64,000 nt of DNA. It comes from Pomacea canaliculata (Eukaryota). Under the pieces are notes generated by a model. The model was not told the DNA's origin, did no database searches, and worked only from the letters and a program-made list of their open reading frames with translations. Positions within the stretch are counted from its first letter, which is position 1. Each line of letters begins with the position of its first letter. Location: contig NC_037593.1 of NCBI RefSeq assembly GCF_003073045.1, positions 29,393,367 to 29,457,366 of the forward strand, read 5' to 3'. Below are positions 1,758 through 46,619 of the stretch, piece after piece. The translations under genes and the position numbers were made by a program.

Positions 1758-1928
1758 CTGAAACACAACGGAATGCGCAATCCCTTTTATCTTCGTCATC
1801 AAATGAAACAAAGGACAGAGAGGAGGAGAGGAAGTAGATGCAATAGAGAGCAAAATGAACTTGCAGTACACATCTGCTCGTCCTCATCACTATTTTATCT
1901 AAAATATTGATAAAACAGATTTTCTCAC

Positions 1929-23131: not shown

Positions 23132-23544
23132 CTGTTAACAAAAAAATCAAAATAGCAAATGAAGCTGATTGTTTTTATGTTTATAGGATGAACATGATCT
23201 ATTCAGCAGTGTCTAATCATAAAATTTGAACAATAAAACATCTCAAATATTGACACTGTTATTATAAGTGCTATCACTATGTGAATATTCTTTGGAAAAA
23301 ATGGGTTGTCATCAATGCCTTACAAACGTGTTAACATTTTCAAATGACTCTCATCTGTGTTATACATTAGATTCAGGTATTGTTTGCTCTCTGCTATATT
23401 TTGCATAACAATGAAGTTACGTAAAACTTTTGAACAAACTTCAAAACGCTTAACATACTTGATGTATTTCTGTGGACATTGTGTGTACAGTCTTAAATCG
23501 AATTCTTTTATTGACACAATAGAGTTAACTGTATTGACCCTCAC

Positions 23545-23840
23545 TTTTTGGGCAAAACTTTCTGAAGCAACTCGCGGATCATCCAGGCTTGTCTACTGAA
23601 AGTCACAATGCAGACATGTATGCCTTTACGATGTGCATGCTCTACGAGATCGCGCATACAAGGTCGCACATGCACTGTCAGTTTGTCTGTGCCTTCTTTC
23701 CAGCTACCTCCCGTATGAATGTCCACCAATGTTTTATCGAAATCCACCGCCAGCAATTTTATACCTTTCTTCGTCAGAGTGCTTACGAAAGATTCTAATG
23801 TTGGATCAATTTCTGATGCTTTGTTACCAATGCAGGCCAT
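23545..23840 (-). CDS. HAD-superfamily small phosphatase (MDP1-like), exon 1 (ATG 23840..23838)
   Basis: Translation MACIGNKASEIDPTLESFVSTLTKKGIKLLAVDFDKTLVDIHTGG...IHVCIVTFSRQAWMIRELLQKVLPK carries HAD motif I (DxDxT: VDFDKT) and motif II (IVTFS). Donor CCCAAAAA|GTGAGG, phase 2. Confidence 0.6.
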
Positions 23841-26144: not shown

Positions 26145-27294
26145 TATACATAAACTCAGGTATTGTTTGTTCTGTACCAGAGTACTGTGCATAATAAACT
26201 TTGACTTATAAACTACGATCTATATAACCCTTCATGTCTGAATACATGCATGTCATGACTATGAGCTTTACCCTTGTGGGAAGTGTAGTGTACGATATCT
26301 GAAACTGGAGCGAGGTCGTGTGGGCGTGTCGATCCGGTTCGTTGCTGTTAGTAACGTAAACAGTTTTGCTGACACCACGAAATTGTATACACATCCATGC
26401 TGACACGGATGAAATTTACTTAATTTGTTTTGAAATATTTACACAGTGCGTAGTCTTGCCAAATCAAATTTACTTGGAAGCCCTTGCTCAAGTGCTTAAT
26501 ACGTCACTTCCGGTAGGTTGAACGGGGACGGGGGTCGGGGGGGGCAGTTTCTAGGTCCACTGAACAGACGATGTCTTTATAGTCATCTAGCTACATTTAG
26601 TTACACCGAGGACGGATATTATAGTTCGTGGTTACATACTATTGACACTTACATTTTTCTTTGTAGAAGATCTTCTCACTGCCATTATTTCCTCTTCCTT
26701 CTTCTCCTCTTCGTCTGTCGTCGTCGATCGTTGTCTCAAATATTTCTTTGATCGTCGTCGATCAATCAGTTATACTGGATTATTGATCTCCACATTATAT
26801 ACATATAAATTATTATTATCTAGGTTATAATGCACAATCTAATTTGCTAAACTCGTAGACAGACTGGTTACATGACGAAAGTTTAGAGAGCACTTGTTTA
26901 GATCGCATCAATCAACACGACTGCGTGACACGTTCCCACATGTTTTCACGAAATAAATGTTGGCCACGTCTGTGTGGATTCATGTTGACTTTATTTTTAT
27001 TTGAAATGGTTAACTTAAGATATAATTATTAGCTTAGTTTTAGGTTATAACATAAAGGCAAACATTGCACAACCTTCAGAAATGTACCGGCGTAGGGTTC
27101 TATTAACACTGCCATTGACTCACACGTACGGCTCTGCCTTGCGCAAGATCAATAGAAAAAGCTGTTTCGGTACTTGCGAACGAGATATGCTGTGGTTAAC
27201 CACTCACATGACCTGGTTAGATGCCTTAAAAGTGCAATAGTTGGGTTTAAAAAGATTCCAAGGTGGTATATGAGGCAAGATTCACACGTCGAGG

Positions 27295-27372
27295 TCTTAT
27301 ATACCCGGAGTAATTTAAACGTACAGATCTAGGAAGTCCAGAAAACGACTATAACATGTACTAGAATCGGTG
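27295..27372 (+). promoter_or_regulatory. MVP: Candidate MVP core promoter and non-coding first exon (TATA-like ttatataccc followed by a GTGAGT donor)
   Basis: cttatatacccggag... lies about 1.1 kb upstream of the MVP ATG and is followed by ...aatcg|gtgagtta. An acceptor-like gtttgcag sits at 28358-28365 just upstream of the ATG exon. This is inference only. Confidence 0.3.
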
Positions 27373-28412
27373 AGTTATTAATTTTCCACATACTGTCGCT
27401 TACGTTATAAATTTTATAATTATTCGTTCAAATGTATTGTATGTTTTCTTGAAATACAGATTCTTATGTAAGCTGTTTCGATCATAATTATAATTTTTAG
27501 TTACTCGAATAAAGACTTGTATCATTATCAGGACTAACCTGGATATTTTAGGTGCTTTATAAGATGCAAAGTCATATCCTAAAACGAAAGATTGATTGCT
27601 ATTTATTCAACTTAAAAAAAAGAATTTTAATAAAAGAATTTGCATATTTAGAATTTCCCAATCTTCATCAGTTTACTACTTGTAAATAATGTAATGTGGG
27701 AAAGATTTCATTATTTATAGCTCCATATTCTGATACACATTAAAGAAGTGTGCATGCAAAGTACAAATCTAGTCTGGTGTTTATGCAAGCTGAGTCTGAT
27801 TCAGTGGACATGAGAATAATTAATTGCTGCCTTTAAACTGGATACGGGTGTATTTTATATATTGACATCACAATGAACATATTACTAATGGTGACACAAT
27901 TTCAACTGACACAAATCCTTATAAGAAATCATCATCTATTGATTCAGAGAGGATAAGGAAGTGTCACTTCCCAAAATGTAATTCGACATAATACAGTTCA
28001 ACAATCTATGACAAATTAATATGTATGATTTTCATTTAAAAGATTCACAAGTATCATGCCAAAGTTGACTTGAACAGTTCATACTGCATCATTAAAAGCT
28101 ATATACTAATGCTATATACGAGATTTAAAAGCAGTTTCAGCTGAAGAACCGCGCGGTTTGAATCTTAATTCAGCTATACTCAGAAAAAGCTTGATATATG
28201 TTCTTGATGGTGGGTGATGGGAACAAAGATTGACTAAATGCTCACTCTCACTGGTTGTATAGAGCTGGTCATGTATATTTTGACAATGTGCTTGCAAGCA
28301 TCTGTTATTAAGACACTATTTTAAAGCAATAAGCATAAAATTTATATCTAATGTTTGTTATGTTTGCAGAAAGTAAAGATTCCATTTTGAGCAACCCATT
28401 AGACTAGTAACC

Positions 28413-28558
28413 ATGGCGCAACGTGGAGGTCAGGCCCAGGGTCAGGATAACATCTTCAGGATTGCACCGTACTACTTCATTCATGTTCTTGATCAAAATA
28501 CCAATGTTACAAAGATTGAGATTGGGCCACAGACCTACATCCGCCAAGACAATGAAAG
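28413..28558 (+). CDS. MVP: Major vault protein (MVP) coding exon 1 (ATG 28413)
   Basis: Translation [48 protein letters not shown] aligns with human [39 protein letters not shown]. Donor GAAAG|GTTAGC, phase 2. Confidence 0.9.
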
Positions 28559-28943
28559 GTTAGCCACTATTACTGATTTTGGTTTTGGGTATTTGGAACG
28601 TATAGAAGTAACATCAACAATGAAATCTGAACCCCATTATATAAATTTACAGGTGTAAAATTCTGTTTATAATTTTAAAAAAAGGGCTTGATGCCAAATG
28701 ACAAATATATTTTTTTACTATTTTAGCACCGTTTGGATACCTCTCTGTGTGAACCAGCATTTTTGTAAAGCTTGACTGGTTTAATTATTACTAGATTTGG
28801 AATTTTTTTATTTCTGTTCTTCCTCAGTATAGTGCATGTCAATTTTTTATGATTAACCAAACTGTTTAAAGAAAAAAATGTTGTCTGCTTTAATCGCTTT
28901 TTTAATTGCCTAAATTATTGAATTGTTAATTTTCATTTTCAAG

Positions 28944-29139
28944 GGTTGTCTTTGGACCAGAGAAGATGACAGTAGTGCCACCACGGCATTACTGTGTGGT
29001 TGAGAACCCTGTTTTACGAGACAAAGATGGAAAAGTTGTTGTTGACAAGTCTGGGCAGGTTAAGCTGCAACATGCAGATCTTGAAATCCGCTTGGCACAA
29101 GATCCCTTTCCTCTCTACCCTGGGGAGGTTCTCAAGCAG
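28944..29139 (+). CDS. MVP: MVP exon 2
   Basis: Acceptor ttttcattttcaag|G. Translation (R)[65 protein letters not shown] matches human VLFAPMRMVTVPPRHYC...[25 protein letters not shown]. Donor CAG|GTTAGC, phase 0. Confidence 0.9.
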
Positions 29140-29458
29140 GTTAGCCTTGTTACCCATCTCACAGACCATTATGAGTATGGTCATGCTTTCATATCCGCAT
29201 TTTCAGCTATCCAAAAAAAAAAAAAAAAAAACAGAAAAAAAGAAAGAAAATGAAAGAAACAGTTCGCAAGTGCTAAAAAGTACAAGGTAAAAATGTGCCA
29301 TAATATGGAAAAATCCAGAAAGTTCTTTAAGCTTCGCTGGAATAGTAGGTACAACTTGTGTCAAAGGTAAAAGTAAATCAGACCACAAAATTTCAAAATT
29401 ATTAAAAAGATAACCATCTTTCATCTTTCATTTTTCCTGTTTGGTTTTGAAATTCCAG

Positions 29459-29582
29459 CCTGTTACACCTCTTAAAATAGTTCCAGCCAATTCTGCCTTA
29501 CGACTAAGAGCTGTTTTGGATTATGAGGATGAGTCAGGAGAAAAACGAACAGCTGGAGATGAGTGGCTTTTTGAAGGCCCAG
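29459..29582 (+). CDS. MVP: MVP exon 3
   Basis: Acceptor ttttgaaattccag|CCT. Translation [41 protein letters not shown](G) aligns with human [39 protein letters not shown]. Donor CCAG|GTGAGT, phase 1. Confidence 0.9.
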
Positions 29583-29725
29583 GTGAGTGCAGATTATTTT
29601 TTATGAACAAACATTTGATTTTTGTTATTTATGTTATTTTTTAATAATTTTTAATAATTTTTAAGTAAAGTGTTTAATGTGTACATGTACTAGATGTTAT
29701 CTGTGTCTTTGCTTATTTTTTTCAG

Positions 29726-29952
29726 GAACCTACATACCTCGGAAAGAAGTTGTTGTGGATGAAACAATCCGAGCAACTGTTGTTCGCCCCAATCAGGCCA
29801 TTCGCTTGCGTGCTCGTAAGGAATGCAATGATCGGGAAGGTACTGATAGGGTGACTGGGGAAGAGTGGCTGATGAAGAAAACTGGTGCCTACCTACCAGG
29901 GGCTTATGAGGAGGTGGTCGACATTGTAAATGCCTATGTCTTGACTGACAAG
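29726..29952 (+). CDS. MVP: MVP exon 4
   Basis: Acceptor gcttatttttttcag|GA. Translation (G)[75 protein letters not shown] matches the human vault repeat. Donor AAG|GTAATA, phase 0. Confidence 0.9.
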
Positions 29953-30414
29953 GTAATATTTCTTTAAATATTTCAGCTGACTTTTGACATAGTCTAGCTT
30001 TTTAAAGTAATAAAATGAAATAATAATAAAATGATTTTCATTTCACCAATCAAGATCAGCCTGCAACAAGGTTTCCAGATAGTATATTTATGTCTTAATT
30101 AATCCCATCTGTTCATGATTTGAGAATCTTCTTAAAATAGGTTTAAAACCTTAGTATTAGCTTTGAATTTGCATTGGTTTTTGTTTTTTTGTTCTAATTT
30201 TTTGGGTAGTCACTTTTTTCAATATGATGGCAGATTGTTGTAGTAGCTTCATAAAATATTTGTTGCTTGGAAAGCCAGATTATTTTTAGTTTGCTGATAC
30301 CAGTGAGCTTCTGTGATAAATACTTCTGTGTTGTTAAGTATCCTTTGACTTATTGTGGCAAGAAGAGTGTTTATTAACACCAACATCAATCTTAAGTCAC
30401 AATAATATTTTCAG

Positions 30415-30540
30415 AAAGCACTTCACATGAGAGCTTTGAGAACATTCAAAGATGACTTTGGTGTGACTCGCAAGAATGGTGAAGAGTGGCTAATTACACT
30501 GAAAGACACAGAGACACATATTCCCAATGTGTATGAGGAG
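30415..30540 (+). CDS. MVP: MVP exon 5
   Basis: Acceptor aataatattttcag|AAA. Translation KALHMRALRTFKDDFGVTRKNGEEWLITLKDTETHIPNVYEE aligns with human [42 protein letters not shown]. Donor GAG|GTACAT, phase 0. Confidence 0.88.
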
Positions 30541-30589
30541 GTACATGCTTCTGTGATTTATACATTTATCGTGGCTATTACTTACTTAC

Positions 30590-30990
30590 TGCCCATTATG
30601 CCGGTCGGCACGTAGGGCAGCGACAAAGGTCCTCCACTTTTGTCCTGGGCTAGCTTCCCCACAGTACCCCAGCTGTGATTTAGGGTCTTCATTTCTGTCT
30701 CCTTGTGATACCTCTGGAAGCCCATCGCACACATTGGTGGTGGTTTTCTTCGTCGCTGTTTCCGTAACAAGAGTGTTTTTTACGGGACAGGGTTAATGTT
30801 AGCCCTGTGCCCAACCCCCAACCTGGAGGGCCAGGGATCATGTTTCGTCTGGTATCTATCCTTTGACCTGCCCGGCTTGGGTGACCCTGCCCGGTATAGC
30901 TCTCAGGGTCATCGACACACACAAGCCCCCCGACCTCGACAAGGTAATGATCCTCCGGGGGGGATCATGGCTATAAACGAAATGAAAAAT
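30590..30990. repeat. GC-rich insertion in the otherwise AT-rich MVP intron 5, possibly a SINE or other TE-derived segment. It shows a weak resemblance to 5222-5330.
   Basis: There is a sharp compositional jump here (e.g. ...ctgcccggcttgggtgaccctgcccggtatagctctcagggtcatcgacacac...). A partly similar string gccggtatccaaccggaagtggcctagcctcggtttagggtgaagaccatccacac occurs at 5240-5300. Confidence 0.3.
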
Positions 30991-31272
30991 ATTCATAAGT
31001 TGCACTGAAACATTGGAAGATGCTCTTCCACTGTAGATCTATTTTTATTTTGATATTGATGAGTTTAAAAAAAAAATCAAATCATTATGGATAATTTGAC
31101 ATCTTCATTAGGGCTGTAATGTAAGGTACAGATATTTGAGGAAACAAGGAAAAGATACTTATTTTTCCTCGGTTGATTTTTGAATTAAATTAAATGTTCT
31201 AATGGCTGAGTTTTTGTTGTTGTTGTTGTTGTTTTTTTTAGTTTGTTATAATGACTGTTTCCTGGTAAATAG

Positions 31273-31383
31273 GTTGTTGGAGTGGTAAACATAACTACCC
31301 TGAACAACCGACAGTATTGTGTTATTCTGGATCCTTGTGATGACTTAGGCCGTCCTCAGCTTGGACAGAAGAAATTGATCAAG
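31273..31383 (+). CDS. MVP: MVP exon 6
   Basis: Acceptor ctggtaaatag|GTT. Translation [37 protein letters not shown] aligns with human [37 protein letters not shown]. Donor AAG|GTGAGG, phase 0. Confidence 0.9.
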
Positions 31384-32202
31384 GTGAGGCTTTACCCATT
31401 TTTTTTTCCCCCACTTTTCCTTTTTTTTTTTTTTTTGGAATTCTTGACTGGTACAATAAACCTACCTTTACCTTTACAGTTCCTTTCAAACTCTTATTCT
31501 TTTTAATGGTTCAGGGTTACAGTAATAAGAAATCAGAAAAGGGAGCAAAATTATATTTTAGTTCTCATTAAATCTCAACATTTATTATGTATAAGGAAAT
31601 CAAAGATATTTGAACCCTAGAACACTAATAGTTGCACAGAAGTACAATTGTGTTCAAATATATCCTCCTATAAACCTGCAGTAAAGACAGCTATAATTGA
31701 CACCACATTATACAATATTTCTTACATATTTAATTAATGTAATTTGCAAAAAACATATTTCTGTGTAGTCTTGTGTTAAAAAAAATTAAAGATGTCAACT
31801 ATATAATTATATATAAATTGCCATGAAATTAGGTTATAAGGCAAAAAATTGCCAAATAATTAACTTATTAGAATTCAAATATTACTTATCATTATATTGC
31901 CTCTTCGATTTTGTAGTACAAATCCATTTCAAAGTTAGTAGCCAATAGTTGTCTTTATTTGGCTTGATCTTTCAAATGTAACAAAATATCTAATTGCTCA
32001 AGGGAAACAATTCATAGTAAAATAGTCCTTAAAGGAGCAAATAGTTTCTTCCCATATTTATTCATTTGGTTTTGTACATTGCAATGCTTTAGGACTCCGC
32101 ACAGTTTATATTATACAGTGTTCCTATGAAGCAATCACTGTGCTTGTCAAGACGTTTGCATCCATGTTTTTTTTGTTTGTTTGCTTTTTTTTTTACTTAC
32201 AG

Positions 32203-32322
32203 GGAGAGCGATCATTCTTCCTCCTTCCTGGTGAGCAGCTTGAGAAAGGAATTCAGAATGTATACATTCTTGGTGAAGACGAGGGTCTCATTCTTCGAGC
32301 TAATGAAGCCTTTAAGGATGGG
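32203..32322 (+). CDS. MVP: MVP exon 7
   Basis: Acceptor ttttttttttacttacag|GGA. Translation [40 protein letters not shown] aligns with human [35 protein letters not shown]. Donor GGG|GTAAAT, phase 0. Confidence 0.9.
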
Positions 32323-32617
32323 GTAAATACTTAGACTCACACATGCAAAAGAAAAAACAGTGTCATAAACCTTATGTTTTGAAGTTAAAGTCATTAAATT
32401 TCTTTCTTTACTGGCTGTCTCCCTCTCAGTAAGGGATTCAGTTGAAAAGGAAAAAAGTGTAACAATTCAGTTTTCTTAAGTAAGACAAAAGACTAAATGC
32501 TCAGCTGGTCAGCTTTATATGAATTGGTTTCTTCTTCCCATTAACTGTTTTTGAGATTATTTCTATCTGTGATAGTAAATGGAGGCAATGATTTTTTTAT
32601 TTATTTTGCATCCTCAG

Positions 32618-32767
32618 TCGGTTGAGCGCAAACCAGGTGATCGGTGGATGATCAGGGGACCAGTTGAATATGTTCCCCCTGTTGAAGTGGATGTTTTGAT
32701 GAAGCGACAGACTATCCCTCTGGATGAGAATGAAGGAATTTATGTTCGGGATGTCAAGACTGGCAAG
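32618..32767 (+). CDS. MVP: MVP exon 8
   Basis: Acceptor ttattttgcatcctcag|TCG. Translation [50 protein letters not shown] aligns with human [45 protein letters not shown]. Donor AAG|GTTTGC, phase 0. Confidence 0.85.
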
Positions 32768-33978
32768 GTTTGCATTGAGCTATCCTTTGCCATTATCTGT
32801 ACACTTAAGACATGGAATATTAGCAAATATGAAAGAGTGAAGTAGGGAGAAAGGAGGCATTACAATACAACTTAATTAATCCACAAGGGCAATTCCAGAT
32901 AGTGTTTATACTACTAATATATAGATATATACATGTTGAAGTAACCTCTCTCTGTCTCTCATACACACACATTCCCAGCAACAGCAGATACAGTTGGTGA
33001 CTTTAGATCCTTTCAGCCCAGTACAAGATCATCAGTAGAGTTAAATGTAATCAAGTAAATGGCATGTGGAATGAAGGAATTTTGGTGACAATTGGTTCTG
33101 CATATAGGCATCGCATACCTGCAGCCATACTGCAAATGTGAAAACTCACATGCCAACGCATGGTCAGAAATAGGATGCCGGATGTCTTCCTAAGGATTGG
33201 CTGATGAGTAAAGTCCCTCTGCCTGATTCCTGTGATCTTGGAATAGATTTTAACAAGGGAGACAAGAATATCCATTTTCTTTAGGGAGAGGCTGTGGAAC
33301 AAAGAGATAAAAGAGAGGAGATGAGACTTTCATTGAAGGACTGATAGAACTGAGTGAGGATGACAGAGCTGACAGAGAAAGTTTGAGTTTCCATAGGAGG
33401 TACAGGCGTTGTTGGCTTTTACGGAGGATCATATCAGTGATAATGTCCCATTTAAGCTTATTATCAAAGATAGTCACTAGTATTTTATGCCGACTACCAT
33501 GATGGCATCATCATGGGATAGTACTGATGACTGCCTCAGGCTTGTTCATTAGAAAGTCAAAGATCATTTGCTTAGTCTTTGATGCATTTCGAATAAGAAA
33601 GTGTTTGTCACACCAGCATACAACATGTTTGTTATCATACAAAAGTGACAGCAAGGCAGAGTAATCAAAAAATTTTATAAGAAAGCTCCTATCCATAGTG
33701 CTTGTACAACCGTTAGATTATAGTATGAACAGTAGTGAAGACAAGCTTGCAGCAGCCCTGAGGGGAACCTGTACAAGTGACATAACATGATCTGCTGAAG
33801 AAGGGAAAGTTTGAAAATAATAATATCTTGACCTTTATTTATAAATGCTGTAATAACTGCAGAAGGTTGTAGTCATATGTCATGTCTACTACAGTCTGAA
33901 AATTGTCTCCATTTTCTGGTAAAGAATGGTTTATGAAAATGTAATGATTATTGCTGAATTGTGGATCCAATTTTACAG

Positions 33979-34220
33979 GTGAGAGCCATCACAGGTGCAA
34001 CATATATGCTGAACCAAGATGAGGAGCTGTGGGAAAAACAACTCCCCCCAGTTGTTGAACAGCTTTTGGCAGGTGGAAAAGATCCTTTGGCAGACCGCGC
34101 TGACCGTGGTGGTGATGCCACTCGCTCTACCAAACCTCGTGACAGGACTCACGTAGTATCCTTTCGTGTTCCTCATAATGCTGCTGTGCAGATCTATGAC
34201 TACAAGGAAAAGAAAGCAAG
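33979..34220 (+). CDS. MVP: MVP exon 9
   Basis: Acceptor atccaattttacag|GTG. Translation [40 protein letters not shown]...[25 protein letters not shown] aligns with human [30 protein letters not shown]...[23 protein letters not shown]. Donor GCAAG|GTAAAT, phase 2. Confidence 0.9.
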
Positions 34221-34729
34221 GTAAATATAATTCAAGGAAAAGATACCTTTGAAATTAGTAATTTAATGTAGACAATTTTGAAAAATAATTTTATGTAATT
34301 TGGATAGAGTGAAGTTTTATTTTTTTTTTAACTAAGCTGTCATCAGAATATTATTATGATATTAATATCTCTATTTGACTAGTTTGTAATGAATTAAATA
34401 TTATTTAAAAATAAATTTCCTTCATCAGCCAGTTTTTGACGAGTCATTGTTGTAAGGGAGATAACTTGAATTCTACATGCCAACAACAAAAATTACGTTA
34501 ATATGAGGATAAAATGTGAGACATATGTTATCCATGTTTTAACAGAGTTTAGCTTTATCACATTTGTTTTTTAACTAACAGAATAATTCTATAACCTAGT
34601 TCCAGATAAATTCTTTAAATCTAAAGTGATTTATAATATAGGTAGATTCTAAACATGACAGAATATCTGTTCATTACGGAAATTTATTCTCAAAGATTCA
34701 ATCACCATGATTGTTATTCTTGTTTTCAG

Positions 34730-34927
34730 AGTGGTCTTTGGGCCTGAACTGGTGATGCTAGGCCCTGATGAGCAGTTTACACAGCTTAGTCTCTCAGGAG
34801 GCAAACCCAAGAAACCCAATCAGATCAAATCTCTCTGCCTGCTACTGGGACCAGATTTCTGCACTGATATAATCACTGTAGAAACTGCAGACCATGCCCG
34901 CCTGTCACTGCAGTTATCATACAACTG
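34730..34927 (+). CDS. MVP: MVP exon 10
   Basis: Acceptor ttattcttgttttcag|A. Translation (R)[65 protein letters not shown] matches human [30 protein letters not shown]...[31 protein letters not shown]. Donor AACTG|GTGAGC, phase 2. Confidence 0.9.
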
Positions 34928-35427
34928 GTGAGCAATTTTTTAAATGTCAGTATTATGCTCCTGCTGCTTAACTTCTGTTACCTTTTTGGTCAGGACAGCA
35001 AACTCTACAGACTCGAAGTTGAAGAGATCTCTGAGTGACTAGATGCCCTGGCCATTTTTAAACAAGGTTGACAGTCTAATGCACTTAGTCTGATATACGC
35101 ACTTTACTGATCTGTCTGTAAACTTAGTATTTCGACAAGACAGCACTTCAAATTGATTTGTCCATGCTTAAGGAGGACTTTACACTTGAATGGACCATGG
35201 TTAATGCATTCAGCCCTGGTTTTTTATGATACAGATTGTTAAGGCTTTTGAAATGCATTTTATCAGTCTTTTAATCAGACTGTCAAAAGAGCCTACAGTA
35301 TATTTATCAAGAATTTAAGAAGAATTGCTAAAAATCTTCGTGATTTGCATTTGCATGAAATAAAAAATTATTGCTTTGTTTGTGGTTTGAACTGATGGTA
35401 ATGTCTTCATAATCTATTGTTTTGCAG

Positions 35428-35569
35428 GCATTTTGAAACAGGTAGTAAAACACCCGAGGATGCAGCAAAGCTCTTCTCTGTCCCAGATTTCACAGGCGAT
35501 GCATGCAAAGCAATTGCCTCTCGCATTCGTGGTGCTGTGGCCCAAGTGCAGTTTGATGACTTTCACAAG
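35428..35569 (+). CDS. MVP: MVP exon 11
   Basis: Acceptor ctattgttttgcag|G. Translation (W)[47 protein letters not shown] aligns with human [49 protein letters not shown]. Donor AAG|GTAATT, phase 0. Confidence 0.9.
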
Positions 35570-35803
35570 GTAATTGCTCAGTGGAGAAAATTAAAAACTG
35601 GTTGCAAGATCTCCACAAAATGTATATACACACAGACAGAGAGAAGAAAAGGATAACCATAAAAAGCAACATGGCTGGTACATTCCTTATCAGATGTTTA
35701 CCTTTTGGGATTGCTTCTTAAAAATCACTGCACTTCAGTGTTTCACGTCTGCCAAGTTTACTTCCGTACTTTATTTCTGATACATTTGTGGAATTTGTTT
35801 CAG

Positions 35804-36015
35804 AACTCAGCCAAGATCATTCGTTCCTCTGTCTTTGGTTTTGATGCTAACAGCAAAGTGAGGGAGAAGTTCACCTTTCCCCAGAACAACCTCGTCATAA
35901 CTAGCATAGACATCCAGTCTGTGGAGCCTGTGGACCAGCGTACACGCGATGCTCTACAAAAATCTGTGCAGCTGGCTATTGAGATCACAACAAACTCTCA
36001 AGAAGCTGCTGCTCG
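35804..36015 (+). CDS. MVP: MVP exon 12
   Basis: Acceptor ggaatttgtttcag|AAC. Translation [70 protein letters not shown] is nearly identical to human ...[33 protein letters not shown]. Donor CTCG|GTGTGT, phase 2. Confidence 0.9.
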
Positions 36016-36313
36016 GTGTGTATAAAAAGCTCTTAGAATAAACCGGGGACCTATTGTGTGTGTGTGGGAAGAGGGGCTTGTGCACGTGTGTGCTACAGGT
36101 TAGCATCAGTGTGTTGGGCAATTATTAGGATATGCATAGTTTGTCATTTATTATTTTGAAGCTAAACATTTTAACACTCTAAACATTCTCATCTTGTTTC
36201 TTTAACTCATGATATTGAAAGAAAAGATGTGAAATGGCAAACATCTTCCAGTTTTGGTATTTGTGAAGATATGTTGTCTGCATCTTTTTAATCCATTGTA
36301 ACCTCTACATTAG

Positions 36314-36557
36314 GCATGAGGCTGAGAGACTTGAGCAAGAAGCAAAAGGAAGACTGGAGCGACAAAAGATTGTTGATGAGGCTGAGGCAGAAAAGTCCCG
36401 TCGCCATCTACTGGAGCTTCAAGCTCAGAGTGCAGCTGTTGAAAGCACAGGTCAGGCAAAGGCAGAGGCCCAGAGTCGTGCAGAATCAGCCCGCATTGAG
36501 GGAGAGGCTGCAGTGGAGCAAGCAAAGCTAAAGGCCCAGGCCATGAAGATTGAAGCT
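36314..36557 (+). CDS. MVP: MVP exon 13 (start of the coiled-coil cap-helix region)
   Basis: Acceptor aacctctacattag|G. Translation (R)[81 protein letters not shown] aligns with human [84 protein letters not shown]. Donor GCT|GTGAGC, phase 0. Confidence 0.9.
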
Positions 36558-37229
36558 GTGAGCATTTGACATTTGATCTTGTTGAACTTTTACCATCAAA
36601 CTTCTGTAAATCGAAATTCTCCCTAACTCGAATTTGAAACATCAGTTGGTTGGCTTCCCATTAAAGCAATGCATATTCAACTTCCATAGCTCGAGTCCAT
36701 CTAGCCAAAAACTTCCACAACTTAAATAACTTTAAGCCAGTCAGCATGTTGAAACCAGTTGAAAATACTTCAGAAAGTGTAAAATTGTGTACTCCTCCCC
36801 CATTGACCCTGCTCTCCCATATTCTCCTTTCTATGTAGGAAACACATGCAATAAAAGTGACTGTCTCCACAGAGTGCCAAAGTGTCTTTAAAAGATTAAC
36901 AAGAAATGAACATTTGATTAAAATTAAACATCCGCAAATGTTCTTTTTTTGACGAACTTAACTCGAACCTTCCATAACTCGATTTTCTTTTTGGTCCCTT
37001 GAAGCTTCAACTTATAGAAGTTCGAGTGTTTATATGCATTTATTTGAGTATTTGAACAGAGATGTGATCAAGCTTGCCCTTTTTAAATTTTTTTTACTTC
37101 TCATCTAGAACCTCTAATTTGGGTGATAATGAAAAAGGGTGTTTGCCTCATAACTGAGAAGGCTTAATTGTTATTAGCAAATAATGTTTGAGTTTCACGT
37201 TTCATGATTTTTAAAAATTTCGTTCTCAG

Positions 37230-37418
37230 GAATCCGAGCTGGAACGTCTGACAAGTGCTCGTGAAGCAGAGCTCAAATATGTTTCTGAGCAAAATGATCT
37301 AGAACTAAACAAATCCAAGGAACTTGCCGCCATTGAATCTACTAAGTTCAGAAGTATGGTTGAGGCCATTGGAGCATCAACTCTTGCTACTATGGCCAGT
37401 GCTGGAACTGAGACGCAG
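37230..37418 (+). CDS. MVP: MVP exon 14
   Basis: Acceptor aaatttcgttctcag|GAA. Translation ESELERLTSAREAELKYVSEQNDLELNKSKELAAIESTKFRSMVEAIGASTLATMASAGTETQ aligns with human ...[26 protein letters not shown]. Donor CAG|GTATGT, phase 0. Confidence 0.9.
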
Positions 37419-37800
37419 GTATGTACTGTCATTCGTTGGTGTCTTATTTTCTACATATTATCCTTTACAAAACACTGTTCTTTGGGGTTTTCGTTAAAGG
37501 GGTTGAGTTGTCCTCGATGTTAATGAATGTTTATAAGACATATTTACAGACATATATACTTTCTGCTTAGGATGGCTATATAAGATTAGAGTTTTGAAGG
37601 TAAAAAATATCCTTCAGCATTGAAAATTAAGCAGATATTTTGACTCTCAGTCATGTTCTAGGTGTCCTGTAGTCATCAACACATTGTATAATACTGACCA
37701 TACTGTGTATACTGTGTCAACAGACAAAGGTGAGGTTGCTTGTCAGCAATAGTTGACAAAATAAACATGTCAAAGCCAAGGCATTTTTGTGTCTGTGCAG

Positions 37801-37956
37801 GTGAAGATGCTACAGGCATTGGGACTCAAATCCACACTCATCACCGATGGCACTTCACCCATCAACCTCTTCACCACAGCTTCAGGACTTATTGGTGGAA
37901 TGGCGCTCAGCAAACGTCGCCGCTTGTCTGATGATGAGGACAACGATGATGTTTGA
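37801..37956 (+). CDS. MVP: MVP terminal exon 15 (stop TGA 37954..37956)
   Basis: Acceptor tttttgtgtctgtgcag|GTG. Translation [51 protein letters not shown] aligns with human [34 protein letters not shown]. Total CDS 2583 nt, 860 aa. Confidence 0.9.
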
Positions 37957-39899
37957 GGAGATCTTGATTTTTAAAGTTGTTGATGTTTTTCTTCAAAAAA
38001 GCTGCTGATTCTGTGGCAGTGACTTATGCATTGTGGTTATGAAGTAATGTTTTGTTCCAAGTGACCAGAAGTAAAAATCAGGCAGTTTTTGTGGTTATAA
38101 AGTTTTTTGTGCAGAGAAGACCAGAAATAAAATTCCATCAGCATAGTTATTAATATTTTCAAAATAAAAAAATGTTGTTACATTTATCCTTATCAACAAT
38201 ATTTGTCAAAAAAAAGTTTCAGAATCTTAGCAATATTGTTGAGAAGCTCAGCAACTGTTTCAGAAAAAGCTGAGGGAGAAAGGAGGAGCTTGTGTATGAA
38301 AATATTTTTCAAGGTTTTGAGATATTCTCAGCTTTACTAACAACTTTATTAACAAAGCAAATTTTGATAAAGGCTTTTTGCGGTATTTAGTAATCAAGTA
38401 GAAAACAAATATTGTTGGATTACATTTTTATGAATCACCCTTTTGTAAAGTGAATTGTTGACATTTTCACAAAGAAGAATGCTGTGATTATTCTTGGTTT
38501 TATATTGAAAATTTTTCTTGATATTTTGTGATGTCTGTATGATGTATAAAATGCTTAATATAAGCACTTTCTTTAATTATATTTTAAGATACATTTTGTT
38601 GTAGCTGGGGTTTATTTGGACATAACTGCCTGCCTTAAAACTGCCTCACTTTTTTCAGGATCACATATGAAGGCTTTGTTATGGTCCCTCATCTGCTGCA
38701 CAGCATTGTGCCTGTTTCTGCAGAATAACAGTTTGTGTGTCTATGTGTGTGATCTGAGACCCCATCAGGTTTGGATAAAATGGTGACCATTTTATTTTCA
38801 GTTATTTAGTTACTTCATGGAGATTGGCACAAAGAGCCTTACTACATGCAGTGAAAATAGCATTTTGAATTAGCGTGTACTTTAAGATATTTATATGAGC
38901 ACTTTGTCTAGATGGATCTGCAAGAGGCACAACAATTTGATGGTTTACTTATGGAAAGGTGTATGTATTGAAGTTTTTTAAAACTGTTTTGTTAGATGAT
39001 GGCAATATTCTATCACTCTTGTTGAGAGAATTTTCATTTTTTCATGCACAGCTAGATAAATAAAGTGTTTGCTAAATGAGTGCTTAGTATCATAAATAAA
39101 AACGCTGAAACACAAGTTGTGTGGGCTTTCATTATTGTCATCACAGTAATATATACTCTTATTAAATCTTTTGATCTCTAGGTCTAAAAATCGTTATTGT
39201 CTAAAACAATAACCATTGAAAGGTGGCATTTCAAAGGAACTCTGACTTTTATTACTTGTTCTGTACAAGCTTTTTTTTTTTTTTTTTTTTTGGCTTGTTC
39301 TGAGATATGTGAGAAAAACTGTGTGTGTGATTGGTTTAGTGTCTAAGACATTATTTCCAAACCATCAGAAATAAGAGGCCTATGCGTAGCTGACTGCATG
39401 GGTTCAAAAAGTAAAGAAAAACCAAATTTTATAATGCAATGTATAATTCTAACTGTACTATTTTTAAAATATGAAACCACAGAGCAAGCAAATTCTTGGG
39501 CATAATAATTATTATAATGCTAAACTGCACTTTAGACACCGTCGAGTTTTGTCAGTTTCGGGCATCAACGAACACGGAAAACTTTCATCAACGACACGAA
39601 GACGCCTGCACTTCGGTCATTGCCCCGCAAATGATTAAACACTAGCTCACACACACACACAAAGAACATCAGTGTATATCTGAACCAGAGACCGATGAAT
39701 TCAAGCGAGAGAGCGAGGGCACGTACAGATGCACTAGACCATGACGGTCTACCATCAGCACTATATACTCTCGGTGTCGCAATCCTTTATCCAAAAAACA
39801 GCAATTTATCTTTCGAAATCTCGTGACGATGCACTTTATTTAGCTTGGACAAGTGCGGCATTGTGAGCGAGTGACTCCCATTGTTCTCCGTGTCAGCAG

Positions 39900-40016: not shown

Positions 40017-40194
40017 GTAAATCCATTTTAATCCGTGAAAATTGAGGTTTAGAGTAGAGCCACTGTTTTACGCTTTATCATGACTGTGAGTGTCGTTGAA
40101 CTACATTTTCGTGGGATACAGCAAGATATGATGAGAGCGAATGCAGTGCAGTTACAGTTTTGCGAGAGGATTTTTTTTAATGTTGATAACCGAA

Positions 40195-41330
40195 GTAAGA
40201 ATCTCTCATATGCCGAAAATGTGTTATCAGAGTATGCTAAATACTATCTAAACGCTGATCCCGCTCGTATTTATCATAATTATCGTTGCTGACATAGAGG
40301 TTAAGCTTATCGTTACTGCGCGTGAACATCAGGGCTGCTTGTGAATATTTGTTTACTTTGTCGTACATCGATCGTTATACAGTCTATCAAAGACATGTAA
40401 AGCATTTATAATAGTCATAATAATCATTAGTACTAGATTTCAACATCTCTGTTTTTTTCCATGATTAATAAAAGGCTAATTAAACTGCATAAACAATTCG
40501 TCTACTGACCTAGTTAATGCTCTGGCCTTAGCAGCATCATATTGTGCAATCGCCACCATCTGGTTAATAAAAACACACATCGATTGAAAACAAGTTTGGA
40601 TCAGTTATTCATCATATAAATCTGAATATCTGTATGCAGTCGTGTACTGGCGAATTCAACAGTCATATAATAATGTGTAGTAGTTTCAGGATCGCAATGA
40701 ATGTTATACTTTACTCTTGTAGCATAATGTAGATTACCGAAGTAGGAACTATAATACACTGAAAGTGTGTTATCAGAGTATTCCAATACAATCTAAACAC
40801 TGATCCCGCTCACACTTATCACAATTATCGTTACTAAATTTGAGGTTAAGCTTATCGTTACAAAATTTGAGGTTAAGCTTATCGTTACTCCATGTGAACA
40901 TGATATGAGGGCTGCTTGTGAAAAGAGTATTTGTTTATTGTTTAATTATGTTGTGCATAGTCATATAGTCTATCAGAGACATGTAAAGCATTTATAATAG
41001 AATCATTAGAGTACTAGATTTCAGCACCTCTGGTTTTTTTGGGTTTTTTTTGCAAGATTTTAAAAAAGGCTAATTAAACAGCTTAAACAATTCGTCTACT
41101 GACTTAGTTAATACTCTGGCGTTATCAGCATTATATTGTGTGATTGATACCATCTGGTTAATAAAAAGTCGCATTGATTGAGAAAACGTTTGGATTATAA
41201 ATCTGAATTTCTATATGCAGTCGTGTACTGGCGAATTTAATAGTCATATAATAATTTGTAGTAGTTTCAGGATCGCAATGAATGTTATGCTTTACTCTTG
41301 CAGCATAATGTAACCATTCCATATTTTATT
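40195..41330. repeat. Tandem duplication, two copies of a roughly 565-bp unit, in the first intron or intergenic space upstream of the RING gene
   Basis: Unit 1 at about 40195-40760 and unit 2 at about 40760-41330 share long blocks (...gtgttatcagagtat.ccaa.aca.tctaaacactgatcccgctc...gaggttaagcttatcgttac...catttataata...ctaattaaac.gc.taaacaattcgtctactgac.tagttaat.ctctgg...cagtcgtgtactggcgaatt.aa.agtcatataataat.tgtagtagtttcaggatcgcaatgaatgttat.ctttactcttg.agcataatgta). Confidence 0.8.
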
Positions 41331-42578: not shown

Positions 42579-43018
42579 GTGAGTTGGAACACCTGCTAAT
42601 TATATATGTATGTGTGTGTCTGCGCGCATGTGTGCATGCTTGTGCATGTTTTGATTGCCTTTTAATGGTAAATAGTGTGTGATGTATGGATGTGTGCATC
42701 CATGGTGCATGGTTGGTGACATTTAATGCCATGATTTAGACTATACAGTGCCATGCTAGTCTAGACCTGTAAATAATTGTCACTGCAGCTGGCATTTCTT
42801 ACTTTTGATGTTCTTTTGTGATAAGTATTTACTGTTATCAATATTATATGTAATGTACATGCATAACATATACATAATATATGCATTGCATGCAACATTT
42901 GTACTTCTGAGTGCATTTTCCTCTTTTTGTGGGTGTAGGAATAAAGAGTTGCTTAATCTGTTCAGTCAAAGCCTAAAGATATCAAATGCATACTTCTCTT
43001 TCTACAACTACTTTACAG

Positions 43019-43327
43019 AAATTCTGCAAAGACTGTCGCCGCTGCTTCTGTTCCACCTGCCTACCCAAACCAAGCAATAATAATGGAAGAAATGGTCGTC
43101 AATGTTCCAAGTGTATCATTCTAACATCTGGCAAATTTACTAGACAGATGTTGCAGGCATGGAAAATCAAAGACATGCGATGTTTTTTAGATGCCCGAAG
43201 CATTTCAACATCATCATGTAAAGAAAAACATGATTTGATAGATCTTCTCTTGCTTCATTTCTGCTTGGAGTCTAATTCTACACATGTGGAACAGGCAGAG
43301 CATGATCGGCTAGTTGATGAACTTGCT
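43019..43327 (+). CDS. RNF34/RFFL: RNF34/RFFL-like exon: FYVE-like zinc finger and helical region
   Basis: Acceptor ctacaactactttacag|AAA. Translation KFCKDCRRCFCSTCLPK...RQCSKC...KIKDMRCFLDARSISTSSCKEKHDLIDLLL aligns with human RNF34 HVCCDCKKDFCSVCSV...RRCSTC...KVKDLRQYLILRNIPIDTCREKEDLVDLVL. Donor GCT|GTAAGT, phase 0. Confidence 0.75.
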
Positions 43328-44215
43328 GTAAGTTTTAGGATAAAGTTGTCTTAATCCATTAATCATTTCCTACAAGCAGAGAGGGCCTGTGATCAAAGTC
43401 TTAAATTTCTAGCATCAGACAGCTGTTTTGGCTGGAGAAATGATCTCTTCTGGGATAAGTACTGTTTTGCACTGTTCTAATCATTAATCATTGATGCATT
43501 ACTCATTGCACAAGGGGCTACCTTAAGCTGATTGAGCACACAAAATTAAAAATGATATTTAACAGATACATTGTGAATAGTGCTGATCGTTGGCATGAAG
43601 CTCATTGGTCCTGCCATTAACCAGTGAGGTGTTATAATAATTACAGAGCAGAATGCAGTCTAGCAGCTTTTGCAGTTTCACACCTTTGCCCAGTCAGGTG
43701 TCTATGGCAGAACATTTCTCCAATTCTGCTATAAGTGAAGCTACAGGTGAGGGAAGCTTCTTATCCCTTTTGTGAAGTGTGGCTCATGTAGTCAACCACA
43801 TTTTCTACATCCTCTATTATGTGGTGGTCTGTTATGTTTGCTATGGTCAAGTTTTGTAAAGGGGGAACACCAGCATCTTGTGGCTTTTAGACCCAATGTG
43901 TTCCTCTTGTTCTCTCATTAATGATTTCATTGATGGAAATAATTTTGTTTTTGTGTGTTTTCATGAGTCTGTGTCTTCTTTAATTTACCAAAATTATTTA
44001 GTTTAAAATTGCAGCAGTAAAATGATATGAATGTGAAGCAGTGTTTTCTATAGGAAACTAATCAGATTAGAAAAATTTATAACAATCCTCCCCTACCCTA
44101 CCTAAAATGGGGATGAAAACATGCTCACATCTTCTCAGTCTTCTTTACTCTCTGTTTCTATTTCTATTTAGCGTTAGTCTAGATTTTCCTGTTTGTTGCA
44201 GACTCATCATATCAG

Positions 44216-44401
44216 GAACAACAGGAACAGTCATCTTCTGTACAAAGCACTGGCAATAACAGTAGCAATAGAGGACTACAAAATGTCACAGAAGACACTG
44301 AACGGGGTAATGATGAAAGTGATGGTGGTGATAGAAACCTTCGAGAGAGACAAGAGCAAGAGACTCTTAGGAGATATCAGGAGGAACTGAGGCATGAGGA
44401 G
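44216..44401 (+). CDS. RNF34/RFFL: RNF34/RFFL-like exon: Ser/Glu-rich acidic linker
   Basis: Only the acceptor at catcatatcag|GAA (44215/44216) keeps the frame from the previous exon. The earlier AG at 44200/44201 would need phase 1. Translation EQQEQSSSVQSTGNNSSNRGLQNVTEDTERGNDESDGGDRNLRERQEQETLRRYQEELRHEE. Donor GAG|GTTGGT is weak, so the 3' end is uncertain. Confidence 0.5.
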
Positions 44402-44836
44402 GTTGGTTTTGCATGGAATTCATACAGGTTTCATACAGAGATTAGTGAGTGCTGTGAAATGCCAAATGTTTTGCTGTAGGTTTTTTCTTTTTTTTTCACT
44501 TTTTAAAATTATTTTCACAATTACTCCCGTCGGAGGTGTTTTTTTTGGGTTATTTACATGGACTGTATGTGTTTGTGTGAGATGATAGTTTGAGTGGAAT
44601 TTAGTTGTTATTAAGTTTTTATTATAAGCCAGTTGTTTTACCACATCTTGTAATTTCTCCGCGTGAGATAATAAAGTTAAATTGAATTGAATTTTAAAGA
44701 AGCAAGATGGTTGTGCATAAGGTAAAATAGCTCTATATTTTTGCTTTGTTCATTATTAAGATTCACATTCTTTACAAACGCATGCAAGAATCCAGAGGAA
44801 GGGTTTTTTATTTTGGTTTTTTTTTTCCTTCTTCAG

Positions 44837-45035
44837 CCTGAAACTAGACCAGGAATTAAACGTGCCACTCTGGAGGATGTCAAGTGTGAGTCAGATGTGG
44901 ATAGCTTGACGGTGCGGCAGCTGAAAGAGATTCTTGTGAACAATTTTGTGGACTACCGTGGTTGTTGTGAAAAACGAGAGCTGAGAGACCATGCTAAGAG
45001 GCTCTGGAAAGAAGACCAAGCAAACAAGCAGAGAG
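44837..45035 (+). CDS. RNF34/RFFL: RNF34/RFFL-like exon: conserved pre-RING helical segment
   Basis: Acceptor ttttttttccttcttcag|CCT. Translation [66 protein letters not shown] aligns with human RNF34 ...[49 protein letters not shown]. Donor AGAG|GTTTGT, phase 1. Confidence 0.8.
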
Positions 45036-46168
45036 GTTTGTGACCTCTAGTCTTCAGTCATAGGATAGATATTAAAACTACATAATAGAGAAAGTGAATG
45101 ACTGGGATGACGACATCTTTTTTTTTAATGCCATTACACATGACTGCCAGTTTGAGTAATTTTCCCCCCTTAATTAAAAAAAATTTTGTAATCAGTGGTT
45201 TGATGAACTCTTATAAATAATTGTTTTCTCTGTAGTGGTGAAGAAGTTTTTTTAATCTGGCAATCCTTTTACCATGAATCGTTTGAGAAGACCTGGATTT
45301 GATGAATTTGATAAACCTCTAAGTTTACCCGGTAACCCTGCTAGAATTCAAGATTACTCTTCCTCATAAGGTGCAGCCAAAATTGGTTGCCAGATTTAGA
45401 ACAGTATTTAAAAAAATAAAAGAAACTGTTCAGTGCAAGTGATGACTCAGGGGAGACATTCCAAACTTTTAGGGCCCATGCTTCAGTCTTGGAAATGTCC
45501 TTTCAATCAGTATGATTTAAGATATAGGGTAAATTGTGGAAGATTTTGTTTTGCATTAACTTTTATTTATGTATAACCCCATTTCTTAAACACTATTAAG
45601 AATAATAGTAAATTTAATTTATTGGGTGCGTGATCCCTCCATCAAAGGTTAGCTCAAAGCACTTGACAAAAAAAAATAGACAAAATAACAACACATACAC
45701 GGACACATACAACAAAAGGTGTGTTATGTCTGTAGAATACCACAAGGCAGAATGAAGAAAGATACATCTATATTTGCTCCTGGCTTTCTCAGTCCAGTTG
45801 AATTGTGAGGCTGCAAAATGCTCCTGTCCACATGACAGTTATTCAGCAAAGTAAAAGTTAGCTTGTATAGCTCCCTGTCCATGCCTGTCTGGCAAGCTTA
45901 AGGCATTTGATATAACCAGTCAAATGAACTATGTCAATTGTGACGTCTCCATGTTGAAATAGAATCAAAGCCATAGACGTGGATTGAAGGAGCACCACAA
46001 TCCAAACGAATGATGGCAGGCACATTAAAAGCACACACCAACACGAAAAAGACATCAGATAATATAATACCACAGAACACAACACCCACCAGCCAGTTAG
46101 AAGGGACATCAATCTTGTCAAATTGCTAAATCCTTTTTCATCTCTAACAATTTTGTGTGTGTACACAG

Positions 46169-46371
46169 CAACAGCGGCACATGAGAAATCAAAAGCAGCC
46201 GATGCTAGTTGTGGGAAGATTTTTGCAATGCCTTGGGTACTACTTGACCCTAAGCACAACATGTGTAAGATCTGCATGGATGCTAGCATTGATTGCATCT
46301 TGTTAGAGTATGGTCACATGTGCAAAATGTGGGAAGCGTCTGGCAGACAGTACATCACTCTTGTCAAATGA
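46169..46371 (+). pseudogene. Decayed tandem duplicate of the terminal RING exon (pseudo-exon)
   Basis: It is near-identical to 46620-46861 and includes the acceptor tgtacacag|CA. A roughly 10-bp deletion (ttgacatgta) and a roughly 18-bp deletion (tgtcccatctgcagacag) remove the last RING Cys ligands. The translation ends ...[35 protein letters not shown]. Confidence 0.65.
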
Positions 46372-46619
46372 ACTGTGTTGATTAAGATGTCTCCATGTTG
46401 AAGTAGAATCGAAGCCATAGACATGGATTGAAGGAGCACCACAATCCAAACGAATGATGGCAGGCACATCAAAAGCACACACCAACACGAAAAAGACATC
46501 CATCAGATAAGACAAAAATACAACAGAACATAGCACCCACCAGCCAATTAGAAGGGACATCACTCTTGTCAAATTGCTAAATCCTTTCTCATCTCTAACA
46601 ATTTTTTTTTTGTACACAG

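Follow-up and report, generated by a model that had tools for sequence, protein, structure and literature searches.

An intact, expressed major vault protein gene in the golden apple snail Pomacea canaliculata

Vaults have been lost from fungi, insects and probably plants (PMC3762200), and a preliminary description of this locus, which also named insects, fungi and plants among the lineages without them, proposed that it holds an intact gene for the major vault protein (MVP) from an invertebrate that has vaults. The locus raises the question of whether this gene is complete and in use, how far its transcript extends beyond the coding exons, and how its exons and introns relate to those of MVP genes in other animals. 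We analysed a 64-kb stretch of DNA, here called the window. At a probability of about 95%, the region is an intact, expressed MVP gene of the golden apple snail Pomacea canaliculata. Pfam matches, PDB matches and a deposited gastropod protein all agree with that description.

Gene structure and transcript

Fifteen coding exons on the + strand (28413-37956), assembled from sequence anchors, and 14 GT-AG introns produce an open reading frame of exactly 2583 nt that encodes 860 amino acids followed by a TGA stop, with phases that agree at all 14 introns (Table 1). The same 15 exons come out of a second program, an exact spliced mapper from protein to DNA, when the deposited protein (P0001) is the query. 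The GT-AG junctions, consistent phases and 2583-nt CDS that had been described from the letters are thus borne out by the assembly and by an independent mapping. The start ATG at 28413 has a strong context, with A at -3 and G at +4, and an in-frame TAA is found upstream of it at 28374-28376.

The transcript is an assembled Logan contig, L001, from the Pomacea sample SRR23441711. It carries the 2583-nt CDS unbroken, and each of the 14 predicted coding junctions is matched by a 40-nt junction word from it with 0-2 mismatches. Different exon boundaries or premature stops in spliced transcripts had been put forward as evidence that would count against the model; the spliced contig has identical boundaries and no premature stop. 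The contig and the window differ at 4 amino acids across the 2583 nt (98.5-100% nucleotide identity), which indicates that L001 comes from another individual or from a sister species.

The contig also extends the gene on both sides. The MVP gene has 16 exons, 15 of them coding plus a non-coding leader, and its transcript, on the + strand, covers no less than 26567-39113. The preliminary description of a complete 15-exon locus therefore stands for the coding exons, but the whole gene has 16 exons and exceeds 28413-37956. At the 3' end, L001 nt 3264-4582 matches the last exon at 99.6% identity, and a 3' UTR of about 1.16 kb ends near 39113, 13 nt past an AATAAA at 39095.

Table 1. Exons of the Pomacea canaliculata MVP gene and its 5'-UTR intron, in window positions, with the parts of the protein that they encode.
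Feature	Position	Strand	Content
Exon 1, non-coding 5' leader	26567..27369	+	L001 nt 1-797, 98.3% identity; 5' limit is the contig end only
5'-UTR intron	27370..28369	+	1000 nt, GT-AG
Exon 2 / coding exon 1	28370..28558 (coding 28413-28558)	+	43 nt 5' UTR; aa 1-48 and two bases of codon 49; R1
Coding exon 2	28944..29139	+	aa 49-114; whole R2 (Pfam Vault_2, 57-114)
Coding exon 3	29459..29582	+	aa 115-155; 86% of R3
Coding exon 4	29726..29952	+	aa 156-231; R3 tail, whole R4, R5 head
Coding exon 5	30415..30540	+	aa 232-273; 86% of R5
Coding exon 6	31273..31383	+	aa 274-310; first 65% of R6
Coding exon 7	32203..32322	+	aa 311-350; R6 end and first half of R7
Coding exon 8	32618..32767	+	aa 351-400; second half of R7 and R8 start
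Coding exon 9	33979..34220	+	aa 401-480; remaining R8 with disordered loop, R9 start
Coding exon 10	34730..34927	+	aa 481-546; remaining R9, shoulder domain start
Coding exon 11	35428..35569	+	aa 547-594; shoulder domain
Coding exon 12	35804..36015	+	aa 595-664; shoulder end, cap-helix start
Coding exon 13	36314..36557	+	aa 665-746; cap-helix
Coding exon 14	37230..37418	+	aa 747-809; cap-helix end
Last exon	37801..39113	+	aa 810-860, TGA 37954-37956; cap-ring region and acidic tail; 3' UTR of about 1157 nt

The gene is already known, as its 860-aa product is 100% identical over the full length to the P. canaliculata entry PVD32862.1 ("hypothetical protein C0Q70_08309"). The same 860-aa protein is deposited as XP_025092503.1 and XP_025092504.1, "major vault protein-like", and it is named "Major vault protein" in UniRef (A0A2T7PHH2). 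The wide occurrence of MVP among molluscs and among other invertebrates outside the arthropods is known. Compared with the deposited P. canaliculata entry, the protein is the same, and what is added here are the transcript-based UTR exons and the junction-by-junction check; the useful outcome is a validated, transcript-supported 16-exon model with UTRs.

The leader junction, with donor CG/GTGAGT at 27369/27370 and acceptor AG at 28368-28369, can be resolved canonically as GT-AG in one way only, 27369 to 28370, where 1 of 40 nt is mismatched. An alternative is that the gene has 15 exons starting near 28413, and that the 803-nt upstream block arose as an artefact of assembly or reflects an upstream start that is minor or alternative, not the normal first exon. 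In an abundant housekeeping mRNA, a leader as long as about 840 nt and with 13 upstream ATGs is unusual, and the 5' end of the block is a contig end adjoining a G-run (26525-26546). In addition, a TATA-like TATATAC about 70 nt upstream of the leader donor (about 27298-27304) means that exon 1 could be much shorter. Against this, the junction is seen in the transcript with a canonical GTGAGT...CAG pair, so that 28370 is joined by splicing to some exon whose last base is 27369, and a polypyrimidine-AG acceptor sits 44 nt upstream of the ATG. That NCBI has two XP accessions for one protein would agree with transcript variants whose only difference lies in the UTR, and exon counts in mammals likewise imply one non-coding exon (see below). 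We consider a gene without a normal upstream exon very unlikely. With the 16-exon gene, a leader of this length, with its 13 upstream ATGs and a first exon that is non-coding, may be a genuine part of the snail MVP mRNA. In human MVP, splice variants of the 5' UTR include an inhibitory upstream ORF. Should the snail leader be genuine, leader-based translational control of vault abundance could be ancient and conserved.

Domain content, exons and the vault particle

All five Pfam families of the MVP architecture exceed their curated cut-offs: Vault (E-value 3.5e-70, in four stretches), MVP_shoulder (9.6e-54), Vault_2 (1.4e-38), Vault_3 (1.7e-37) and Vault_4 (6.3e-20). In the array of nine repeats, R1-R9, Vault corresponds to R3, R4, R5 and R7, Vault_2 to R2 and R6, Vault_4 to R8, and Vault_3 to R9. 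R1 is without a Pfam model of its own and has a weak Vault_3-like match at 22-48; it aligns to human R1 with identical waist residues. The shoulder follows directly after R9 (PF11978 MVP_shoulder, aa 521-638) and covers the whole profile (1-118/118). Beyond it, snail residues 638-841 align without gaps to human 647-850, the cap-helix and cap-ring region. The vault repeats, shoulder and cap-helix described from the sequence are therefore all present, according to the Pfam matches and the alignment to human MVP. A phmmer search of the PDB finds human and rat MVP chains as the best matches, at 1242-1258 bits in a single stretch (query 12-841), where a best match outside the MVP family had been named as a result that would count against the description. 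The proposed end-to-end conservation with human MVP is likewise confirmed: the alignment is collinear over the same stretch, with 66% identity over 846 aligned positions. A Pfam B3_4 match at aa 203-269 scores 17 bits for a cut-off of 29.3, and we dismissed it as noise. The shoulder (aa 521-638) shares its fold class with the SPFH/band-7 family, which includes stomatin, prohibitin and flotillin as well as HflK/C (PMC13347060). That relation is confined to the shoulder; with its nine vault repeats and its cap-helix, the snail protein is an MVP and not a membrane SPFH protein.

The preliminary description assigned roughly one repeat to each of exons 2-12. Taking the limits of R2-R9 and of the shoulder as Pfam match limits on overlapping fragments, we find that this holds for exons 1-5, which track R1-R5 at 86-100% each, and fails for exons 6-12. 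Over exons 6-10, R6-R9 are split at about the middle, the shoulder domain is encoded by exons 10-12, and the snail protein has nine repeats only. The match of exon boundaries to repeats ends after the first third of the protein, which argues against a simple array origin with one exon per repeat.

In human MVP, the waist contacts that join the two half-vaults are Asn22, Ile36, Gln38, Asp39, Asn40 and Arg42, as seen by cryo-EM (PMC13347060). All six residues are identical in the snail (N29, I43, Q45, D46, N47 and R49, within LDQN and YIRQDNER). If the snail protein behaves like its rat and human homologues, 78 copies would self-assemble into a barrel-shaped vault particle made of two 39-mer halves, with R1 contacts joining them at the waist and a cap-helix bundle lending stability. 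Assembly in the snail, and any cellular role there, would follow from the same homology. TEP1, PARP4 and vault RNA are not in the 64-kb window, and an Rfam scan of all 64 kb at the gathering threshold returns nothing, hence no vault RNA or other known RNA beside MVP.

A true MVP orthologue might in principle no longer build vault particles in the snail lineage, and serve for example as a soluble scaffold. Our search of the literature library for MVP together with Pomacea found no paper, and thus no report of the protein or of vault particles in P. canaliculata, and the function of vaults in general is described as unsettled in PMC13347060. However, high identity is kept in all parts relevant to assembly, namely the waist residues of R1, the shoulder and the cap-helix, and the simplest explanation for conservation from end to end between sponge and mammal is that the particle imposes constraint. 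We regard the loss of particle assembly as extremely improbable.

Intron positions across phyla and comparison with known MVP genes

We compared the snail introns with those of five species from five other lineages: a limpet, an acorn worm, a mammal, a sea anemone and a sponge. The mammal, standing in for the human genomic locus, is the bat Myotis brandtii; its MVP and the human protein are 93% identical. The comparison is without cephalochordates, as the exact-protein look-up gave no gene record for Branchiostoma floridae (P0118) or B. lanceolatum (P0090); the same look-up gave none for the product of the window (P0001) or for Myotis davidii (P0152). Xenopus tropicalis was left out of the intron mapping, being represented by an intron-less transcript contig only (L006). 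Pairwise MVP identity among the invertebrates is 75-81%.

Introns common to the snail in both position and phase number 11 of 14 in the mammal, the acorn worm and the limpet alike, as expected of an orthologue, and 10/14 in the sea anemone and 9/14 in the sponge. Five intron positions are common to all six species. Most MVP introns thus predate the sponge-bilaterian split. The intron after aa 114 is found, among the six, only in snail, limpet and mammal. In sponge and anemone, intron 1 follows an AAG Lys codon in phase 0; in all four bilaterians it lies in phase 2 inside an AG/R Arg codon, and this Arg codon is that of the waist salt-bridge arginine (human Arg42). A joint reading, in which the long leader carries a possible ancient translational control and intron 1 moved by a clean 1-nt slide, is speculative, and we think it rather unlikely.

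That the locus is a non-functional or decaying MVP copy, with the functional gene elsewhere, has a negligible chance of being right: some gastropods do have two MVP-like genes (as in Physella acuta, P0026 and P0080), with nothing positive for such a reading at the snail locus, but the 860-codon ORF is intact with every splice site canonical, a spliced transcript exists and differs from the window as little as reported above, and the protein aligns free of frameshifts to human MVP and to other molluscan MVPs, the latter at 81-87% identity. Conserved introns and molluscan nearest relatives lead us to reject pseudogene, contaminant and horizontal-transfer readings alike.

The intact snail gene can be set beside known MVP genes. 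The limpet Lottia gigantea (LOTGIDRAFT_214098) has 13 coding exons; the introns that follow aa 310 and 809 in the snail are missing from it. Myotis brandtii has 14 coding exons; the snail introns after aa 273, 350 and 594 are absent from it, and mammalian introns at the snail equivalents of aa 202 and 704 are absent from the snail. The human MVP gene at 16p11.2 is reported to have 15 exons (PMC7916137). Set against the 14 coding exons of the bat, this count suggests that the mammalian gene has a non-coding first exon, in which case snail and mammal would have this feature in common. The human 15 would then include the non-coding exon, whereas the 15 of the snail are coding exons only, so that the equal number is a coincidence of counting. 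At the protein level, human and rat MVP (PDB 11dr, 4HL8, 4V60 and 7PKR) have the same domain order as the snail protein. Insertions that the mammalian protein has in R7 and in the shoulder loop are absent from the snail protein, which ends in a short acidic tail where the human C-terminus is longer and rich in Pro and Gly.

Coding model and identity of the protein

Using sequence anchors on stop-free segments in the three forward frames between 28000 and 38400, we assembled 15 MVP coding exons that total exactly 2583 nts, that is, 860 amino acids and a TGA with no internal stop, running from the ATG at 28413 to the end of the stop codon at 37956. All 14 introns are GT-AG, with a pyrimidine-rich tract before most acceptors, and the exon phases are mutually consistent. 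The same 15 exons are returned from the deposited protein by an independent exact protein-to-genome spliced mapper; the coding exons, junctions, phases, coding length and coordinates of the preliminary description are all reproduced. The start codon is secure because of an in-frame TAA at 28374-28376 upstream of it.

In the 860-aa protein, Pfam identifies four Vault stretches, two Vault_2, one Vault_3, one Vault_4 and MVP_shoulder, far over the curated cut-offs. When all PDB chains are searched, nine of nine matches are major vault protein, the best scoring 1242-1258 bits over one collinear stretch (snail 12-841, human 5-850), and BLASTP gives 559/846 identical residues (66%) between snail and human MVP. 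The top match in a collection of 5.8 billion proteins is Pomacea canaliculata PVD32862.1 (100% identity over 100% of the length), labeled “hypothetical protein C0Q70_08309”, which assigns the window to this caenogastropod mollusc, the golden apple snail. Further records of the identical protein are XP_025092503.1 and XP_025092504.1 (“major vault protein-like”) and UniRef A0A2T7PHH2 (“Major vault protein”); the snail gene is already deposited and named, an annotated orthologue of a well-known gene. Gastropod and bivalve MVPs come next in the ranking (81-87% identity to snail), then those of brachiopods, annelids, nemerteans, echinoderms, hemichordates, cnidarians and sponges (73-80%). With MVP as the best match in both collections, the proposed family membership holds.

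By homology, the snail protein would form a 78-subunit vault shell, built of two 39-mer halves that would join at R1, the first of the nine vault repeats, and the cap-helix bundle would stabilise the assembly (PMC13347060, PMC2752026). The waist residues seen by human cryo-EM (Asn22, Ile36, Gln38, Asp39, Asn40 and Arg42; PMC13347060) are, in the alignment, all six identical in snail, which supports a retained vault assembly. That MVP is conserved but particle formation has been lost is an unparsimonious reading. We infer the vault assembly, its partners (TEP1, PARP4 and vault RNA) and the cellular role in the snail. No Rfam families, including vault RNA, are detected in the whole 64-kb window.

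Transcript support and extent of the gene

L001, a Logan contig of 4582 nts assembled from run SRR23441711, encodes P0123, a co-member of the 90% cluster with four amino-acid differences from the window protein. We take L001 to be an assembled mRNA because its 2583-nt CDS runs uninterrupted. It aligns to the window in 16 blocks with 98.3-100% identity, and the 40-nt words spanning the predicted junctions are present for 14/14 of them with 0-2 mismatches, which confirms the coding junctions at the RNA level, as the preliminary description had called for. The L001 alignment also includes a non-coding leader exon, joined to the acceptor TTTGCAG at 28369/28370, 43 nts upstream of the ATG. At the other end, the 3’ UTR in L001 finishes at about 39113, with an AATAAA at 39095, 13 nts before. 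This makes 16 exons over at least 12.5 kb for the MVP gene, and the “complete 15-exon locus” of the preliminary description missed the leader exon and the 3’ UTR.

A 15-exon gene without the leader exon is contradicted by the canonical 27369/28370 junction in L001; an uninterrupted ORF, a spliced transcript and high conservation contradict a pseudogene. Pfam, PDB, BLASTP and the transcript agree on an intact MVP gene, an interpretation that is supported with two corrections, one to the exon count and one to the match of exons with repeats.

As assembled in L001, the leader exon is 803 nts long and has 13 upstream ATGs, whose longest ORFs cover 52 and 30 codons, and its 5’ limit at 26567 is only the contig end. 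Directly upstream of it we find an ETS-like ACTTCCGG (26506-26513) and, between the two, a G-run (26525-26546). The MVP start site is uncertain because a TATA-like TATATAC, at about 27300, is only ~70 nts upstream of the leader donor; a shorter exon 1 starting nearer that element is possible. The HAD-like gene and MVP are transcribed in opposite directions, away from each other, so a bidirectional promoter region near 26500 is possibly shared.

Insertions in the introns and neighbouring genes

The GC-rich insertion in intron 5 opens with a (TTAC)n-like run. Read on the minus strand, it presumably resembles an ORF 3’ end from a non-LTR retrotransposon ('...QKWRTFVAALRADRHNGQ*') with a (GTAA)n tail behind it, and no further copy of the insertion is found within the window. 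The degraded fragment in intron 8 ('KLKWDIITDMILRKSQQRLYLLWKLK...') has stops and frameshifts, and we take it to resemble the C-terminal tail of the reverse-transcriptase-bearing retroelements common in aquatic animals. The A-run in intron 2 could represent the poly(A) tail left by an ancient retroposed insertion, or be a plain simple repeat.

Features of the window and Pfam domain limits in the snail MVP protein
Feature	Position	Strand	Evidence or remark
Cytosolic sulfotransferase (Sulfotransfer_1)	1627-4108	-	Pfam
Leucine-rich-repeat protein, 341 aa, single ORF	6751-7776	+	Pfam
Weakly HAD-like hydrolase, first coding exon	23541-23840	-	Pfam
MVP non-coding leader exon	26567-27369	+	L001 alignment; consensus donor CG/GTGAGT
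Run of 19 A, then A/G-rich sequence	29213-29231		MVP intron 2
GC-rich insertion, ~400 nts	30560-30965		MVP intron 5, otherwise AT-rich
Degraded ORF fragment	33100-33480	-	MVP intron 8
Two tandem units, ~590 bp, 76% identical to one another	40178-41312		Between MVP and RNF34-like gene
RNF34/RFFL-like E3 ubiquitin ligase gene	42986-46861	+	Pfam; downstream of MVP
Dispersed repeat pair, ~230 bp, 73% identity	47891-48119, 55997-56224		
Exonuclease V (Exo5) gene	50624-51947	-	Pfam
GC-richer stretch, 41-43% GC (about 36% elsewhere)	61700-62541		Long overlapping ORFs, both strands
R2	aa 57-114		Pfam
R3	aa 121-161		Pfam
R4	aa 173-214		Pfam
R5	aa 226-268		Pfam
R6	aa 280-327		Pfam
R7	aa 331-371		Pfam
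R8	aa 383-440		Pfam
R9	aa 459-520		Pfam
Shoulder	aa 521-638		Pfam

In the RNF34/RFFL-like gene, separate exons encode a SAP_RNF34_RFFL domain, a third domain that is RNF34L-like and a C3HC4 RING finger. A tandem copy of the terminal RING exon region (46363-46810) lies at 45919-46351 (87.5% identity); this copy is a pseudo-exon since its RING is frameshifted and has a Cys-to-Tyr change. Long minus-strand ORFs at 45858-46749 are simply the antisense of the two RING exon copies. In the GC-richer stretch, a 213-aa plus-strand ORF rich in Ser, Gln and Arg has no Pfam match; possibly it is a coding exon, of low complexity, belonging to a gene not yet annotated.

Exons, vault repeats and intron positions across animals

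Rat and human MVP consist of nine repeats (1-519), a shoulder (520-646), a cap-helix (647-~814) and a cap-ring (PMC3595041, PMC13347060). The snail repeat limits are those of the Pfam matches obtained by scanning overlapping protein fragments. Coding exons 1-5 carry one repeat apiece (R1-R5, 86-100% of each), exon 4 including also the R3 tail and the R5 head. R6, R7, R8 and R9 are split about in half by exons 6-10, the shoulder corresponds to exons 10-12, the cap-helix to exons 12-14, and the cap-ring region and tail to exon 15. The earlier claim that exons 2-12 encode roughly one repeat each stands for R1-R5, but not for exons 6-10 nor for the shoulder exons 10-12. Three of the nine repeat-array introns (after aa 48, 114 and 273) are at or between Pfam repeat limits.

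We compared the annotated MVP loci of Lottia gigantea, Nematostella vectensis, the sponge Halichondria panicea, Saccoglossus kowalevskii and the bat Myotis brandtii (93% identity between its MVP and the human one). All exons were mapped exactly, the introns of the six species were set on a single MAFFT alignment, and, with the 14 coding introns of the snail as reference, an intron counts as shared if it has the same alignment column and the same phase. Lottia and Saccoglossus each have 11 introns in common with the snail (own total 12 in both), Nematostella 10 (own total 16) and Halichondria 9 (own total 13). In the comparison with vertebrate MVP that had been suggested, 11/14 snail introns have the same position and phase in Myotis (own total 13). 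Common to all six species are the introns at snail aa 155/156 (phase 1), between 231 and 232, at 546/547 (phase 2), at 664/665 (phase 2), and between 746 and 747. Snail intron 7 (between 350 and 351, phase 0) falls at an indel, and is probably the same intron as the phase-0 introns found 4-5 columns off in four other species. If it is counted as shared, each snail intron is matched in at least one other lineage, and none is snail-specific. Conserved intron positions are generally expected among slowly evolving metazoan genomes. Among all junctions mapped in the six species, the one exception to GT-AG is the GC donor of the fourth coding intron in Myotis.

The first coding intron (28558/28559 in the snail; the 5’-UTR intron is counted apart) is in phase 2 within an AG/R arginine codon in snail, limpet, acorn worm and bat, whereas in sea anemone and sponge it lies one nucleotide further on, in phase 0, behind an AAG lysine codon. 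These junctions are without exception canonical GT-AG, and the difference is a clean 1-nt shift between non-bilaterians and bilaterians. The codon concerned encodes the arginine of the waist salt bridge (human Arg42).

The Myotis brandtii gene has 14 coding exons and the human gene is reported to have 15 exons (PMC7916137), which implies one non-coding exon in mammalian MVP; the snail gene is alike in this.
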